Assembly: GCA_013166775.1 (NCBI GenBank)
Contig: JABLTJ010000030.1
Span: 1 to 42,208 of the forward strand
Origin: Promethearchaeati archaeon
GTDB taxonomy: Archaea > Asgardarchaeota > Heimdallarchaeia > Heimdallarchaeales > Heimdallarchaeaceae
Reading direction: 5' to 3'
DNA length: 42,208 nt
Shown: positions 5-25,677 of the stretch, one piece after another
Layout: every line of letters starts with the position of its first letter
How positions within the stretch are numbered: position 1 is the stretch's first letter
Notes under the pieces: generated by a model
What the model was told of the DNA's origin: nothing
The model's database searches: none
What the model saw: only the letters and a program-made list of their open reading frames with translations
Program-made: the position numbers and the translations under genes

Positions 5-1030
5 GTGAATTATCCTCATATACTCAAATATCTTCGTCTGGCTAGTAGAGATGTCGAATCTCCCTCCGCGACCAATCTCTTTATTGTGCATGCAAAATCA
101 GAAAATGCAGAAGGGTGGTTAGGGTTACTTAGCCCAATTGACGATATCAATCTCAAAGAAATGGAAGCACTATTGAGACTTAAAATTGATGATATACGAT
201 CCTTTAGTCACTATCACAAAGATTTGTCTCCAATTGAAACTTTACAAAGAAAGAAGCAAGAAAGACAAATAGTGGAAGAGGAAATTAAAAAAGAAGAAGA
301 AGAAGAATTAAAACCAAAAGGTGTCTTGAGCAGATTTTTTGGAATCTTTAAGAAGAAGAAGAAAAAGAAAGTGAAAGCTCCTTCAAAACCTATTATTAAG
401 GTTCAACCTTTTGATACTTGGACAAGACAAATACTTGACGAGTTAATTATTGCAAGTGTATCTGGTATTGGACTTGGATTAGAAGTATATGATTCATATC
501 GAGAAGATGCTTACGTAATCAGCGGAGTAATTGAATCATTAAAACGAAAAGAACAACCAACATTTATTGCTGAAGAAGATCGGGGAGAAACACGCCCCAC
601 AACATTTTACTCAGAAAAATCTATTAATTTTCCATCAGAGTTTCTAGATCCTATAATCAGTGTTTTAGATATAGCAAAAATCTTTATTCCAGCAAGTACA
701 AAGAAGAGCATAACCTCAATCATACCTGAAGAAGCGTTCTATGAAGTAAAAGCTAATCCCGAGATGTTTAGATTAGTAGAGTTTGTAAGTGAAGAAAAAG
801 TAGTTATTGGAATTTTAGCAGAAATAGAAGAACAAACTGCAATAACTTATGCTAGAGGAGAACCAAAATATCAAAGACGTTCAATACAGAGAAAAGCCAG
901 AGAAATCTTACATGCGAGGAGAGTAAACAATATTATTGATTCTGGAAAAAGGACCCTTTCACGTGAAATTGATTGGGATACTGTTAATGTGAGTTATGAA
1001 GAACGACCATTGTTTTATTTGAAGGAATAA
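5..1030 (+). CDS. Hypothetical protein, probably 5'-truncated by the window edge; contains E-rich and K-rich low-complexity stretches
   Basis: 341-aa ORF; the frame stays open to the left edge (AGT codon at 2-4 precedes the GTG); T-tract follows at 1065-1078; no recognisable motif. Confidence 0.8.
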   Translation: MNYPHILKYLRLASRDVESPSATNLFIVHAKSENAEGWLGLLSPIDDINLKEMEALLRLKIDDIRSFSHYHKDLSPIETLQRKKQERQIVEEEIKKEEEEELKPKGVLSRFFGIFKKKKKKKVKAPSKPIIKVQPFDTWTRQILDELIIASVSGIGLGLEVYDSYREDAYVISGVIESLKRKEQPTFIAEEDRGETRPTTFYSEKSINFPSEFLDPIISVLDIAKIFIPASTKKSITSIIPEEAFYEVKANPEMFRLVEFVSEEKVVIGILAEIEEQTAITYARGEPKYQRRSIQRKAREILHARRVNNIIDSGKRTLSREIDWDTVNVSYEERPLFYLKE

Positions 1031-1162
1031 AATCAAAGAAATCATCCTAAATAGAACATCTGTCTTTTTTTTTCTTTTGCGGATAAAAGTATTATAAACT
1101 ATATAATAAACAAAGAGAAGATTCTTACGAAGAGTCTCAGAAGGGGCTAGGGGACTATATTC

Positions 1163-1960
1163 ATGAACGAACTAGAATCTAATGCTAAATTTTTCTTTAT
1201 TAAAGGAAAAGAGGATTTTAACAATGGTAAATATCAAGACTGCATTCGTAACTTAATTTATGCCCAAGAAATGTTTACTTCTATGGGAAATAAAGAACAA
1301 TCTGCCGAAAGTCTCTTCATAATTGCAACTGCTTATTCCAATATTAATCAGCTCTCCCAAGCTCGACAAATTTACTCCCAAGCTTTTTCCAGATACAAAG
1401 ATCTTAACAAGCTAGATAGAATCGGTGAGTGTTCGTATAAATTGGGAGAGATTTACAGAACTGAAGGAAACTTCAAAAAAAGCAAGCAGTATTTAGCTGA
1501 AGCTATTGAAGCATTTACTAAAATGAGTAATATTGAAAAACTTGCAGATACTTGGAAAGAACTAGGTGTTGCCTATCAAACTAGTCTTGACGAGGGATCT
1601 GCTAATCCTAATCATTCCATTAACGCTTACAAGACTGCTATTTCTTACTATAAGAAATTGAAAGTTTATAACAAATTAGCTGAAACACAATACGACTTAG
1701 GTCAACTATTGCTATCTCAAAGTAAATTTAATGATGCTTTAAAAGTTCTTTCTGAGGCTCTCAACTATTATACTAAACAGAAGGATGATGATAACATCAT
1801 CACTTTGTTTATCTTGATTGGTAGAGCTTATTTCAACATGGGTAAAAAACCTAAAGCAAGAGATTATATGTATAAAGCTGTCGAATATATGAGACAAGCT
1901 CAATATTCTCCTGAGAGAATTAATGAGATTAAGAAATCCATTTTTGCCATGTTAGGATAA
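1163..1960 (+). CDS. TPR-repeat protein (all-helical, SNAP/TPR_12-like)
   Basis: Repeating approx. 40-aa helical units with TPR pattern (e.g. YKLGEIYRTEGNFKKSKQYLAEAI; YDLGQLLLSQSKFNDALKVLSEAL); TATA-like TATTATAAA upstream near 1090. Confidence 0.85.
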   Translation: MNELESNAKFFFIKGKEDFNNGKYQDCIRNLIYAQEMFTSMGNKEQSAESLFIIATAYSNINQLSQARQIYSQAFSRYKDLNKLDRIGECSYKLGEIYRTEGNFKKSKQYLAEAIEAFTKMSNIEKLADTWKELGVAYQTSLDEGSANPNHSINAYKTAISYYKKLKVYNKLAETQYDLGQLLLSQSKFNDALKVLSEALNYYTKQKDDDNIITLFILIGRAYFNMGKKPKARDYMYKAVEYMRQAQYSPERINEIKKSIFAMLG

Positions 1961-20217: not shown

Positions 20218-21909
20218 TTAATTCAAACCTATAATTTCTCCATCATCTGTAAAGTCCATTCGTTCTGCAGCGGGGACAGGAGGTAAACCAGGTATAAGGA
20301 ACATACTGCCACAGACAGGAACGATGAAACGAGCACCAGTATATAAACGAACCTCGTCTACATTAAGTGTCCAATCAGTTGGAGCACCCATTGTACCAAC
20401 TTTATCAGTGATACTGAGCTGAGTTTTGGCCATACAGAGAGGCAAATCAGTGAAACCGAGTTTTTCTATATAAGCGATATCTTGTAAAGCTTGAGGAGAG
20501 TATTCAACTTCCTTTGCACCATAGACTTTTTTAGCGATTTTCTCAATTTTAACTTTGATGGGATCAGAGAATTCATAGGCAAATCGAACATCACCTGAAC
20601 CCTTTTCAATAGCTTTGAGAACAGCTTCAGCTAGTTCGAGACCACCTTCACCACCTTTCATGAAAACTTCACTAACAGCGGCTTCAGCTCCTAGCTCTTC
20701 ACATTTATTCTTAATCCAATCAATCTCTTCATCACTATCAAAGGGGAAACGATTGATAGCGACAACAGGAGGAATATTGAATATATTGAGCATATTATCA
20801 AGATGTTTTTCAACATTGGTAAAGCCCTTGGCCAGTTCCTCCATATGAACATTCTTAGCTTCGTCTAAGCTTTTGATACCACCGTGGAGCTTAAGAGCGC
20901 GAGCGGTAACGACTAAGACAACAGTAGAGGGGAGAGTATTGTACTGGCGTGCAACAATATCAACGAATTTCTCAAAACCTAAGTCAGCAGCAAAACCACC
21001 TTCAGTAAGAGTGTAATCAGCTAATTTGAGGGCTAACTTTGTTGCAATAATACTGCTATTTCCGTGTGCAACATTCGCAAAAGGCCCGGCATGTATGAAT
21101 CCTGGTACTCCTTCGAAATTCTGCACTAGGTTTGGTTTTATTGCATCTTTTAGTATTAGCACCATTGCTCCTACTGCTTTCAGATCTTTTGCATATACTG
21201 CTTTATCTTCATATGTGTATCCTACTAGTATATTTCCTAATCTTTCTCTTAGTTCGGCTACATCTGCTGACAATGCTAGTATCGCCATTATTTCTGAAGC
21301 TGCTGTAATTACGAAACCTGTGTTTCTTATATCCCCACCCATTCTTCTTCCACCAAGACCTATAATTATGTTTCTTAACGCCCTATCATTCACGTCCATT
21401 GTTCTTGGCCAAGTTACTTTTGTTGGATCTATTGTTAGTTTATTTCCTTTTGTTAAGTGGTTATCTATCATTGCAGCTAATAAGTTATGAGCAGATGTTA
21501 CTGCATGTAGATCTCCTGTAAAGTGCAGATCTATATCCCACATTGGAAAGACTTGTGATTGTCCTCCTCCTGTAGCTCCACCCTTTATTCCAAATGTTGG
21601 TCCCATACTTGGTTCTCTTATAGCAAACATTGCTTTCTTACCAATTTTTTGTAATGCTTGAGAAAGGCCTATTGTTGTAACAGTTTTACCTTCACCTGCT
21701 CTTGAAGCAGTCATTGCTGTAACAAAAATCAATTTTCCGTTTGGCTTATCTGATTTTAGTATTTTTAGCATTGTTTGGTAGTTTATTTTTGCTACATACT
21801 TTCCGAATTGCTCGAGGTCTTCTTCTTCCAGACCTACTTTTGCAGCAATCTCCCTAATATTTTTCATGTCTTTTTGTTTTTCTTGTGCAATTTCTATATC
21901 AGTTTTCAT
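20218..21909 (-). CDS. fhs: Formate--tetrahydrofolate ligase
   Basis: AGEGKT, REPSMGPTFGIKGGATGGG, LHFTGDLHA, HAGPFANVAHG, TEGGFAADLGFEKF, CMAKTQLS, PGLP; ATG at 21909 preferred. Confidence 0.97.
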   Translation of the reverse strand: MKTDIEIAQEKQKDMKNIREIAAKVGLEEEDLEQFGKYVAKINYQTMLKILKSDKPNGKLIFVTAMTASRAGEGKTVTTIGLSQALQKIGKKAMFAIREPSMGPTFGIKGGATGGGQSQVFPMWDIDLHFTGDLHAVTSAHNLLAAMIDNHLTKGNKLTIDPTKVTWPRTMDVNDRALRNIIIGLGGRRMGGDIRNTGFVITAASEIMAILALSADVAELRERLGNILVGYTYEDKAVYAKDLKAVGAMVLILKDAIKPNLVQNFEGVPGFIHAGPFANVAHGNSSIIATKLALKLADYTLTEGGFAADLGFEKFVDIVARQYNTLPSTVVLVVTARALKLHGGIKSLDEAKNVHMEELAKGFTNVEKHLDNMLNIFNIPPVVAINRFPFDSDEEIDWIKNKCEELGAEAAVSEVFMKGGEGGLELAEAVLKAIEKGSGDVRFAYEFSDPIKVKIEKIAKKVYGAKEVEYSPQALQDIAYIEKLGFTDLPLCMAKTQLSITDKVGTMGAPTDWTLNVDEVRLYTGARFIVPVCGSMFLIPGLPPVPAAERMDFTDDGEIIGLN

Positions 21910-22093
21910 AGTAATCATCACTTAAACTTATTAATTGAACTCATTTTTAGGTATGGATTAAAAAGTATTTAGATAGACATAGAAAATGAATATTTTTTTC
22001 AAGTTTTTTGCAGTTTCACAATTTTTTTTCTGCCTATTATTGGACAAATAGATACGTTCTAAAATAACCGTGGGCAGTTAGTGGTAGAAGATA

Positions 22094-23023
22094 ATGAAAT
22101 GTGAACATCCTGACTGTGGCGCTGAAGCTGATATTCTCTTCTATTGTCGTTATTGTGGTGGATCTTTCTGTGTAAACCACCGTGATTCCAATATGCACAA
22201 ATGCTCTCCACAACAGAAAAGTGAGCAAACAACTGGCACTTCTCCTGAAGAAGCTGTTAAACAGTTTGTTTATAGAGCAGCTCAAGCAGCCCAACAAGCA
22301 CAAGCTCAACAACAACCTACACCTGTAACTTTCGCTAGTGAAGAAGAGCAAAAAAAGTATATCGAACAGCGATTAGTAAAATCTAGTGGCCTCTTCTCAT
22401 TAGGAAGTGAGTTAGTGGATATTATCTTTGGATTTGCTTTAATTGTTCTAGTTTTCGGTTTCTTTCAATACTTCTATAGAGAGGATAACAAATGGTGGGG
22501 TTTCCTTCTTTCAGCTGTTCTCGTAGGCACAGCATTTCTTCCACACGAACTAGCCCATAAAATTGTAGCAATGATGAGAGGACAGTTTGCACGATATATC
22601 CTCTGGGTTAGGGGAATGATGTTTACATTACTTACATTGATTATAGGAATAGGTTTGATAGTACCAGGTTTTGTTGCAATTGTGCCTATGAGTAAACAAA
22701 TGGACAAGAGAGATATAGGTTTAGTTTCACTGGCTGGACCAGCTACAAATGCTGTGATTGGATTAGTTAGCATAATCTTTGGTTTTCTAACACATTATGG
22801 AGTGATTCCTCTAGCTGGGCTAGCAGCATCACCGAATATCTTCATCTTAATCGCTCAATTTAATGCTCTAATTGCTCTCTTTAATTGTCTTCCAGTTTGG
22901 CAACTTGATGGAGCTAAAATTCTTAAATGGAACAAAATCATCTATTTCGTTCTCGTAGCAATAAACGTAGCTATTGCAATACCTACATTCATTCTTAATC
23001 CAGGATTTTTAAACGTCACTTAA
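22094..23023 (+). CDS. AN1-type zinc finger fused to an M50 (site-2) intramembrane metalloprotease
   Basis: C..PDC...CRYCGGSFCVNHR...HKC; HELAH; AGPATN; FNCLPVWQLDG; Q/A-rich linker. Confidence 0.9.
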   Translation: MKCEHPDCGAEADILFYCRYCGGSFCVNHRDSNMHKCSPQQKSEQTTGTSPEEAVKQFVYRAAQAAQQAQAQQQPTPVTFASEEEQKKYIEQRLVKSSGLFSLGSELVDIIFGFALIVLVFGFFQYFYREDNKWWGFLLSAVLVGTAFLPHELAHKIVAMMRGQFARYILWVRGMMFTLLTLIIGIGLIVPGFVAIVPMSKQMDKRDIGLVSLAGPATNAVIGLVSIIFGFLTHYGVIPLAGLAASPNIFILIAQFNALIALFNCLPVWQLDGAKILKWNKIIYFVLVAINVAIAIPTFILNPGFLNVT

Positions 23024-23077
23024 TGTCAAATAAAGATACAAACAAAAAAGATAATTACCTTAAGAATAAATATTTAC

Positions 23078-23140
23078 TGAGGATGAACAAGGCATTACTG
23101 AGAGCTTTTGCTCTATGACGAGTCATAGTTAGTCTGAAAC
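23078..23140 (+). ncRNA. Dual-guide box C/D sRNA predicted to target 23S rRNA (helix 69 and the helix 70/71 region)
   Basis: Box C AGGATGA (23080-86), guide ACAAGGCATTA, box D' CTGA (23098-101), hairpin GAGC-TTTT-GCTC, box C' ATGACGA (23115-21), guide GTCATAGTTAGT, box D CTGA (23134-37); the guides are complementary to conserved LSU sequences AAUGCCUUGU and UAACUAUGAC. Confidence 0.85.
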
Positions 23141-23203
23141 TTTAAGATCAAATTACCTAATTTGAATCCTTTTTTTTCAAAATAGTTTCATTTGATAATA
23201 TAT

Positions 23204-24328
23204 TCATAGCTTTCTATATTCTTTACCATCTATCCAAAAAGCATTGTGACCCTTTTTTCTCAGTGTTTCTAAATTATTAAATCCTAGAATCGACATTACA
23301 GTTTTCATTTCAAAGATATACGAATTCAAATAAGATATTAGTTCTTCTTTCCCGCCCTTTGCAACTGCTCGTAGTGCAGGAAGAGCAAATGCCACATAAT
23401 TCCCACCAAATACAAGAGCTTTAATAGCGTCGAGACCACTCCAAATACCTCCAGAAACTATAGTTTTCTTTATATCAACTGGGGATTTCCTTGCAAGCCG
23501 AATAAAATTTCTAATAGAGGGATAACCAAAGTTCAAATAATTCCTAGCTTCTTTTAAAGATATTAAAGTTGGAACTCCAAGATTTAAAAAGGAATCAGAA
23601 AGATAATTAAGATTAGGATTTCGTGCAGTTTCTATTTTTTTCCAATTGGTACCTCCTGCTCCAGCAATGTCAAGAGCATAGAATTTTAATTTATGGAGTA
23701 AAAGCATATCATTATGAGAAAAACCAGAACCCACTCCTTTAACAATAAGAGGTGATTTTAATGACACTGATAGATTTTCAAGGGCATCAAAAATTGCTGA
23801 AAATTTTCTAGTTCCCTCTTTTTGAATCAATTCTTGCATTGGATTTATATGAACTGCTAATGCGTTAGCGTTTATCATCTCAATCGCTAGTTCTGCCTCT
23901 TTTAATCCATAACCTTCTAAGAATTGTGCTATTCCCAAATTAGCAATCAGTGGTATGTTTGGAGCTTTATCACGTACTTGAAAGGTTTTAGCAAGCTCAG
24001 GATTTTCAAATGCAGCTCTTTGCGAGCCAACACCCATTGCGATGTTTTTTTCTTGGCAGACTTCAGCAATTATTTTATTATATTTCTGACCTAGCTTAGA
24101 ACCTCCTGTCATCCCTGATATTATTATTGGATATGTTATTGTTTTTCCCAGAAAATCTGTAGATAAATCGATATCATCAAAGTTTTCAGTACGAATTACA
24201 GAGTTTATTTTCAACCTCACAATTTCAAAACCTGTTGTGATGGTATCATAAGTAACATCTTCTTCTATACATAGTCTAAGATGATCATCTTTACGTGGTG
24301 AGGTTTCAGATTTTTCTACAGAATTCAT
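23204..24328 (-). CDS. fni: Type 2 isopentenyl-diphosphate delta-isomerase
   Basis: RKDDHL, ISGMTGG, GVGSQRAA, IANLG, HINPMQELIQKEG, AGAGGTNW, SGGIWSGLD; true start is the ATG at 24328 rather than 24457. Confidence 0.95.
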   Translation of the reverse strand: MNSVEKSETSPRKDDHLRLCIEEDVTYDTITTGFEIVRLKINSVIRTENFDDIDLSTDFLGKTITYPIIISGMTGGSKLGQKYNKIIAEVCQEKNIAMGVGSQRAAFENPELAKTFQVRDKAPNIPLIANLGIAQFLEGYGLKEAELAIEMINANALAVHINPMQELIQKEGTRKFSAIFDALENLSVSLKSPLIVKGVGSGFSHNDMLLLHKLKFYALDIAGAGGTNWKKIETARNPNLNYLSDSFLNLGVPTLISLKEARNYLNFGYPSIRNFIRLARKSPVDIKKTIVSGGIWSGLDAIKALVFGGNYVAFALPALRAVAKGGKEELISYLNSYIFEMKTVMSILGFNNLETLRKKGHNAFWIDGKEYRKL

Positions 24329-24471
24329 AAATATAGTTAATATCGGGTAAATAAAAAGTTTGTACATGTGAGATAGAGAGATAAATATTTGAGCAATTTT
24401 GTATCCAACAGAAAAGTTCAATAGAAAGAAAGAACATAAAGGAAAAAAATTAGGCATTTGAGTGAGTAAAA

Positions 24472-24744: not shown

Positions 24745-25677
24745 ATGAAAGATTCAATCCAACATAAACCAACTGTTATGATTAGATTTTCAGAGATAGC
24801 TATCAAAAGTTCAAAGACTCGAAGGTGGTTAACTCAAAGGTTAGTTAACCATATCAAATATGTGTTGAATTTAAAGAGCATTAAGAATTTTGAAGTCATA
24901 AATGATTACAGCAGATTGTTTGTTGAGTCGGATGAACCTGAGCTAATAAGTAAGTACATATCAACTTTAATCCCTGGAACAGCGAGTCTAAGTATTGTTC
25001 ATAAATGCAATACGGATATTAAGGAAATGGAGATGATTATCGATGAATTTTACAAAGACAATATCAGGAGTAGCGAATCTTTTTCAGTCAAAGTGAGAAG
25101 AACAGGAAATCATCCTTTTACAAGTGTTGAATTAGCAGCTAAACTCGGGGAGTATATTATTAACAGCAATTCAGACATTCAATTGAAAGTGAATCTTACT
25201 AATCCTGATTATACGCTACGCTTTGATGTTAGAGAGGAAACAACTTACATTTTCGATGAAATTAAATCAGGTTTAGGTGGTTTACCTGTTGGATGTCAAG
25301 GAAACGTTCTAGTTCTTATAAGTGGAGAAGAAGAAGATTTAGCAAACATAATACAGCTTTACAAAAGAGGAGCGAACACGATGATTTTTTCAATCTGTAA
25401 AAGAGAAAATCTGTCGAAGAAGTTTATTAATCAAATTGAAGAAATACTAATTTTGCAACCAAAAATAAGGAAATTACAGCACAAAATATTCTATGGAGAG
25501 AATGAGCTCGATATTCAAGAAATTATTGATTATTACAGCAAATTTGAGTGTAAAGGGATTTCAGTTTCGAATACGTTATTCAATAAGGTTTCGTCTATGT
25601 TTCCTGTAACCATACCTTTGTTTGTTCCTCACTTAGTTACAGCTATAAATAGAAAGGATTTACAAAATTTCATTTAG
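24745..25677 (+). CDS. ThiI-like THUMP-domain protein with a degenerate PP-loop
   Basis: IRFSEIAIKS, THUMP SFSVKVRRTGNHPFTS...VNLTNPD, GLGGLPVG; the PP-loop reads SGEEED instead of SGGxDS. Confidence 0.85.
   Translation: MKDSIQHKPTVMIRFSEIAIKSSKTRRWLTQRLVNHIKYVLNLKSIKNFEVINDYSRLFVESDEPELISKYISTLIPGTASLSIVHKCNTDIKEMEMIIDEFYKDNIRSSESFSVKVRRTGNHPFTSVELAAKLGEYIINSNSDIQLKVNLTNPDYTLRFDVREETTYIFDEIKSGLGGLPVGCQGNVLVLISGEEEDLANIIQLYKRGANTMIFSICKRENLSKKFINQIEEILILQPKIRKLQHKIFYGENELDIQEIIDYYSKFECKGISVSNTLFNKVSSMFPVTIPLFVPHLVTAINRKDLQNFI

Follow-up and report, generated by a model that had tools for sequence, protein, structure and literature searches.

Our analysis indicates that the window, the whole 42,208-nucleotide stretch of Heimdallarchaeaceae DNA studied here, very probably carries an independently transcribed box C/D sRNA gene, whose RNA of about 58–60 nt would guide methylation of two nucleotides in the 23S rRNA of its own host, the equivalent of E. 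coli A1913 and the G at the position equivalent to 1940. The comparison of related genomes points to a genuine box C/D sRNA, absent from earlier catalogues and belonging to a family that appears to be spread through the Asgard archaea, and the coincidence of its helix 69 target with a site guided by snoRNAs in eukaryotes is well supported by the alignments. Our literature searches found no dedicated study of Asgard box C/D sRNAs. Taken alone, the sRNA would be a normal housekeeping RNA; the A1913 equivalent, placed at the tip of helix 69 and in intersubunit bridge B2a, is a candidate for a site that was already RNA-guided in the archaeal ancestor of eukaryotes.

Anatomy of the locus and its complementarity to the host 23S rRNA

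An earlier note, made from the letters of the window, had described a full C–guide–D'–hairpin–C'–guide–D layout between two convergent genes. Both parts of this description agree with what we read on the plus strand: the elements follow one another in that order (Table 1), and they sit in the 180-nt gap between two ORFs that end towards each other. The spacers measure 11 nt from C to D' and 12 nt from C' to D. In C', a C replaces the U at the usual U.U-pair position. Using the b/n pair numbering of the K-turn (PMC6009581), our own reasoning would place the nucleotide in which box C departs from the consensus as the third bulged nucleotide of the K-turn, outside the G.A pairs.

No convincing terminal stem flanking boxes C and D was seen by eye in the window's own sequence or in the family orthologues. 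The fold energy of the sRNA is no better than that of shuffled sequences (z = -0.7), a result that is usual, and uninformative, for the box C/D class. Two tiny ORFs, of 31 aa and of 23 aa, that overlap the sRNA were rejected as an explanation of the locus, because conservation tracks the boxes, guides and stem and not the codons, and because their starts lie in unconserved sequence. Elsewhere in the window we noted genes for a protein with a THUMP/ThiI-ferredoxin-like domain, possibly a tRNA-modifying enzyme (24745–25677, plus strand), and for a formate-tetrahydrofolate ligase (20218–21921, minus strand).

Table 1. Elements of the sRNA locus and its surroundings (positions in the window)
Feature	Position	Strand	Description
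Upstream neighbour	22094–23023	+	Membrane protein with AN1 zinc finger and peptidase M50 segment (Pfam); syntenic in all family loci examined
Putative promoter	23043–23057	+	A-rich BRE-like run, then TATA-like octamer (23050–23057); putative function
Core of the sRNA (boxes C to D)	23080–23137	+	Block conserved according to BLAST and the covariance model; transcription start predicted within a few nt of 23080
Box C	23080–23086	+	RGGAUGA, one departure (position 2, G for U) from RUGAUGA
D' guide	23087–23097	+	11 nt; positions 2–11 upstream of D' pair with own LSU 2039–2048
Box D'	23098–23101	+	CUGA
Internal stem-loop	23102–23113	+	4 bp and UUUU loop, directly 3' of D'; canonical stem of the C'/D' K-turn
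Bulge and C' core	23114–23121	+	Three-nt bulge (23114–23116) and core GACGA; full C' AUGACGA at 23115–23121
D guide	23122–23133	+	12 nt; core UCAUAGUUAG pairs with own LSU 2012–2021
Box D	23134–23137	+	CUGA, invariant among orthologues
T8 run	23170–23177	+	33 nt after box D; likely archaeal transcription stop, as read from sequence
Downstream neighbour	23204–24457	-	Type 2 isopentenyl-diphosphate isomerase (fni; TIGR02151, 334.8 bits, over the cut-off); syntenic across the family

The host genome, assembled in 115 contigs (3.85 Mb), contains one 23S gene and one 16S gene, and its 23S (contig C52:4985–8366, plus strand) carries the complements of both guides, as the earlier note had predicted for a 23S lying outside the window. 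Each guide forms ten consecutive Watson-Crick pairs with this rRNA, to which the D guide adds a G.U pair at LSU 2011, with 27 nt separating one target from the other. The pairing that had been written for the D' guide proved exact. For the D guide, the proposed target region stands and the register of the pairing was one nucleotide off: the 5'-most G of this guide is left unpaired because the host 23S has G, not C, after ...AUGA, and the duplex gains one pair at its opposite end compared with the earlier version, which had been written from a eukaryote-type target. Under the +5 rule, by which the target is the nucleotide that faces the fifth guide base counted upstream from D or D', the D guide points to LSU A2015 and the D' guide to LSU G2042, both within their duplexes. 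Alignment with the E. coli 23S identifies A2015 with A1913, in the loop of helix 69, and G2042 with position 1940, which is a U in E. coli; these are the two targets first named, the A1913 equivalent and a G at the 1940 equivalent.

The two guides found no complement in the host 16S, and no target of at least 7 nt in the 32 predicted tRNAs, and their 10-nt target sequences occur elsewhere in the genome at about the chance rate. On contig C52 the 16S gene (99–1611, minus strand) and the 23S gene lie on opposite strands, about 3.4 kb apart, and thus do not form one operon. The 23S match extends over 3382 nt against a model of 2987 positions, which suggests expansion segments.

How much of this complementarity could be expected by chance was estimated within the same genome. 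About 1% of 200,000 random genomic 12-mers reach a complement of at least 10 nt in the two rRNAs of the host. The loose pattern 'GAUGA ... CUGA' occurs 2687 times in the genome, and 54 of these pairs have one guide with a rRNA complement of at least 10 nt, against about 54 expected. Only the sRNA locus has, among the 2687, both guides at this length, and a strict four-box pattern matches this locus and nothing else genome-wide.

Conservation in the family and distribution beyond it

A BLAST search of 40 related genomes with a 101-nt query recovered the locus in 21 of the 24 congeneric genomes, and the aligned part, query positions 21 or 22 to 78, starts at box C and stops at box D. Measured against the window, these congeneric sequences are 91% identical in the core, and in the flanks 32–36% (about 34%). 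When a covariance model was built for the sRNA, it found a match in 27 of the family's 30 genomes, representing all five genera and including Ca. Heimdallarchaeum, and none in 16 genomes from the other three families of the order. The same two genes flank the sRNA in all family loci examined, although their proteins are only 50–65% identical to those of the window. In one congeneric genome, two identical copies of the sRNA stand on separate contigs; the gene may have been duplicated, or the bin may contain redundant strains.

The constraint within the block is unequal. The GAUGA of box C and the CUGA of box D are invariant in all orthologues; the longer GGAUGA core of box C is invariant among the 21 congeneric sequences, and the sister genera, in four genomes, have the canonical RUGAUGA. 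The ten-nucleotide core of the D guide is invariant in every family genome with a match (about 27–28 of 30). The D' half varies more: box D' reads CGGA, CAGA or CCGA in some relatives, C' reads UGAUGA or UGAAGA, and the D' guide, although four of the five genera retain it, has degenerated in six genomes that form a subclade of the genus and in another genus of the family (one genome). The 23S target of the decayed guide is unchanged in these genomes or altered at a single base, so that the D' site may be little used or even dispensable. When we looked for other rRNA targets of the decayed guides, only short matches appeared, and these were outside the rRNA.

The internal stem covaries in the family, where it takes the forms GAGC/GCUC, GAGU/ACUC and GUCU/AGAC, and appears as GGAC/GUCC in Thorarchaeota. 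In the wider alignment three of the four stem pairs show double (compensatory) changes, and 97.6% of the stem cells are paired against 26–46% when the partner strand is slid, in an alignment that was fitted to the model and so leans towards the structure. Three unpaired nucleotides separate the stem from the GA of C', a topology that matches a complete K-turn. Since D' and C' are joined by a covarying stem, the motif is a true K-turn and not a K-loop, which bears out the suggestion that this stem is more elaborate than the minimal K-loop.

Beyond the family, a scan of species representatives with C', the D guide and box D in the register of the sRNA returned 44 loci. Most of them are labelled Heimdallarchaeota, among them the complete genomes of Ca. 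Heimdallarchaeum endolithica and Ca. H. aukensis; the remaining loci belong to MAGs of Thorarchaeota, Njordarchaeota and Promethearchaeota (Loki), to a few MAGs of Nitrososphaerota and Crenarchaeota, and to two bacterial matches, where about 17 would be expected by chance. Most archaeal loci have a suitably spaced box C, and the matches in Bathyarchaeota and Thermococci show no clear one. The D guide recurs in one register in MAGs of Thor, Njord and Loki and in a few of TACK, within the groups in which a search for orthologues had been suggested.

Of 399 genomes sampled from the phylum, 111 contain the guide pattern, and about 40, scattered over the sample, contain a reversed control pattern. 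The guide pattern is concentrated: it occurs in 26 of 30 genomes of the window's family, in five of five of one small family, and in 59 of 89 of the last three families. Among 53 genomes from the other families of the Heimdall class, a broader covariance model had a match in one and none in the remaining 52, a result that is subject to strict filters, incomplete MAGs and possible drift of the guide and that we do not read as absence.

Possible expression, proposed mode of action and competing readings

In all congeneric orthologues an A-rich run and a TATA-like octamer are fixed 22 nt upstream of box C, the 22 nt that separate the octamer from the box vary freely, and a TATA-like sequence is found at the matching place upstream of the sRNA in the other genera. 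In archaeal promoters the TATA box is centred near -26/-27. From this spacing, transcription is predicted to start within a few nt of box C (23080), which would fit the missing terminal stem. T-runs lie 20–40 nt downstream of the sRNA in most orthologues. A genome-wide search with the promoter motif gave 46 matches, the motif being of too low complexity for the number to inform. Of the public sequencing runs that contain the stretch, one is a marine metatranscriptome, and runs with small shares of it were not taken as evidence of habitat. The metatranscriptome has one matching contig of 213 nt that is 100% identical to the window and covers 22976–23188; the flanking genes are otherwise uncovered between 22400 and 23900, which we do not take as silence. 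As assembled contigs show neither the ends nor the strand of a transcript, and carry-over of DNA is possible, we treat this contig as a weak hint that the sRNA is expressed.

The genome also encodes the proteins with which such an RNA would assemble: the genes for Nop (Nop5; 224 bits) and fibrillarin (316 bits) adjoin on contig C94, and there are two genes of the L7Ae family. We propose that L7Ae would bind the sRNA at two K-turns, the terminal C/D motif and the internal C'/D' motif with its 4-bp hairpin stem, and that the bound RNA would then recruit Nop5 and fibrillarin. The D guide would pair with the helix 69 loop of the nascent 23S and bring A2015 into the active site of fibrillarin for 2'-O-methylation, and the D' guide, pairing 27 nt further on, would be aimed at G2042. 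Simultaneous pairing at both sites may in addition aid the folding of domain IV.

It could be argued that only the D guide directs methylation, the complementarity of the D' guide being a leftover or a contact for tethering or chaperoning, and G2042 being unmethylated. We consider this rather unlikely. It would account for the degeneration of the D' guide in two sublineages whose 23S target is unchanged or nearly so, for the non-consensus D' box of several relatives, for the different neighbouring positions to which the D' of other Asgard lineages is directed, and for the lack of a Nm at the equivalent position in yeast (2283 by offset; table in PMC5699541). However, the window's own copy combines a perfect CUGA at D', a perfect 10-bp duplex and a well-formed C'/D' K-turn, and most genera have kept the guide. 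A related proposal would make the sRNA a folding chaperone of the rRNA, in which pairing across the helix 69–71 region is what is selected and methylation is incidental or absent; the closeness of the two targets would suit it, and archaeal double guides to nearby sites have been argued to assist folding (PMC6009581; PMC4644070). Yet the D' pairing can vanish while the sRNA persists, and the D guide strictly keeps its register to box D in the family as well as in Thor, Njord, Loki and TACK, a register that site-specific catalysis requires and simple pairing does not, which argues against the chaperone reading and leaves it, in our view, very unlikely.

Two other readings dispense with a guide RNA. 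The block lies on the same strand as the upstream M50-like gene, 56 nt past its stop, the metatranscriptome contig begins within the 3' end of that gene, and L7Ae is known to bind K-turns in mRNA (PMC5539422); the block might then be a conserved 3'-UTR, a terminator or an L7Ae-binding regulatory element of that gene, with no stand-alone RNA. We hold this to be highly improbable, given that a TATA-like element is conserved at promoter distance whereas the sequence from the stop codon to the TATA is not, that two guides complementary to rRNA are unexpected in such an element, and that contigs cannot define the ends of a transcript. Mere chance resemblance in AT-rich intergenic DNA is barely conceivable and is in effect already refuted by the comparative data: loose C...D pairs are indeed frequent, and one guide with a 10-nt match to rRNA is found as often as chance predicts, but here both guides match, their targets are adjacent, the block is exactly conserved, the stem covaries, and all this holds family-wide and beyond. 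We retain the double-guide box C/D sRNA as the preferred reading.

Relation to other archaeal and eukaryotic guide RNAs

The Heimdall sRNA resembles the sR families of Pyrococcus, Sulfolobus and Pyrobaculum in its four boxes, its spacers of about 12 nt and the +5 rule, in having D and D' targets close together in one rRNA, in its use of the helix 69 hotspot, in the occasional decay of one guide, and in its L7Ae, Nop5 and fibrillarin partners. Methylation is known to concentrate in helix 69 in archaea, where it is predicted to be guide-directed in hyperthermophiles and Pyrobaculum, and archaeal double guides commonly target nearby sites (PMC4644070; PMC6009581). One-sided decay of guides is known in Pyrobaculum families, and the exact sites of guided methylation are reportedly for the most part unconserved between distant archaea (PMC6009581). 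Unlike these families, the Heimdall sRNA has a linker formed by a 4-bp stem and loop instead of the typical short K-loop (PMC6009581), a G at position 2 of box C within the genus, and no clear terminal stem.

The versions from Thor, Njord, Loki and TACK share with it the core of the D guide, the 2-nt offset to box D and a C' placed directly upstream, and those of Thor and Loki also share the D'–stem-loop–C' design. In Thor, however, terminal stems of 4–6 bp are present, as terminal stems are in Loki, and the D' boxes are degenerate: in six Thor loci they read YUAG, not CUGA, by the GGAC/GUCC stem. The Thor D' guide complements the GGUAGCCAA stretch (about E. coli 1929–1937) with one G.U pair, and the D' guides of Thor and Loki alike are complementary to rRNA immediately upstream of the D' target in Heimdall. 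In Njord and TACK, the sRNA differs from that of Heimdall in another D' guide and a shorter linker.

On the eukaryotic side, the earlier note had equated the A1913 target with the site of yeast snR63 and human SNORD46, and the literature corresponds: Am2256 of yeast 25S, two nucleotides before the pseudouridines 2258 and 2260, is assigned to snR63 (PMC5699541), and Am3739 of human 28S, in the helix 69 loop, to SNORD46 (PMC8677024). The same nucleotide is targeted by Dictyostelium DdR4, whose Rfam model also has the same guide core ahead of box D. Rfam gave no match in the window at gathering thresholds. With E-value reporting it gave sub-threshold, snoRNA-like matches only, of which the best near-miss was DdR4 (19.8 bits against a threshold of 70 bits, E 1.2, aligned over guide and boxes only), and snR63 and SNORD46 gave no match at E values up to 10. 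Outside the guide and boxes, there is no significant similarity to these three eukaryotic RNAs, which are longer. An internal D'–C' stem is common in eukaryotic snoRNAs. The Heimdall D' target, position 1940, is not among the yeast sites listed (PMC5699541).

Guidance of A1913 in one register in several Asgard and some TACK lineages, and also in yeast and human, would make this position a candidate ancestral RNA-guided modification. That the genes themselves descend from one ancestor is a different claim. The A1913 target is nearly universal, so identical guides would be expected with or without shared ancestry and are no proof of descent; we regard as quite unlikely that the Asgard/TACK helix 69 guide and snR63, SNORD46 and DdR4 derive from one ancestral guide RNA gene. 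If they did, a snoRNA lineage could be traced across the transition from archaeon to eukaryote, and the internal D'–C' stem would be a shared ancestral trait.

The host of the Heimdall sRNA, an AT-rich Asgard archaeon from marine sediment, differs from the hosts of the archaeal sR families, and the motif scans of its genome gave almost no other obvious double guides. The alignments and covariance models of the sRNA offer a validated seed with which Asgard guide RNAs could be catalogued. The scans of this genome also turned up a C...D pair on contig C78 (minus strand, reverse-complement position 44807), whose 12 nt next to box C are fully complementary to the host 16S near 634; this pair may encode a further guide RNA or be a coincidental match. 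Contig C65 (minus strand, reverse-complement position 66778) has a C...D candidate of 49 nt in which box C is canonical and the first guide is complementary over 11 nt to the host 16S at about 989.
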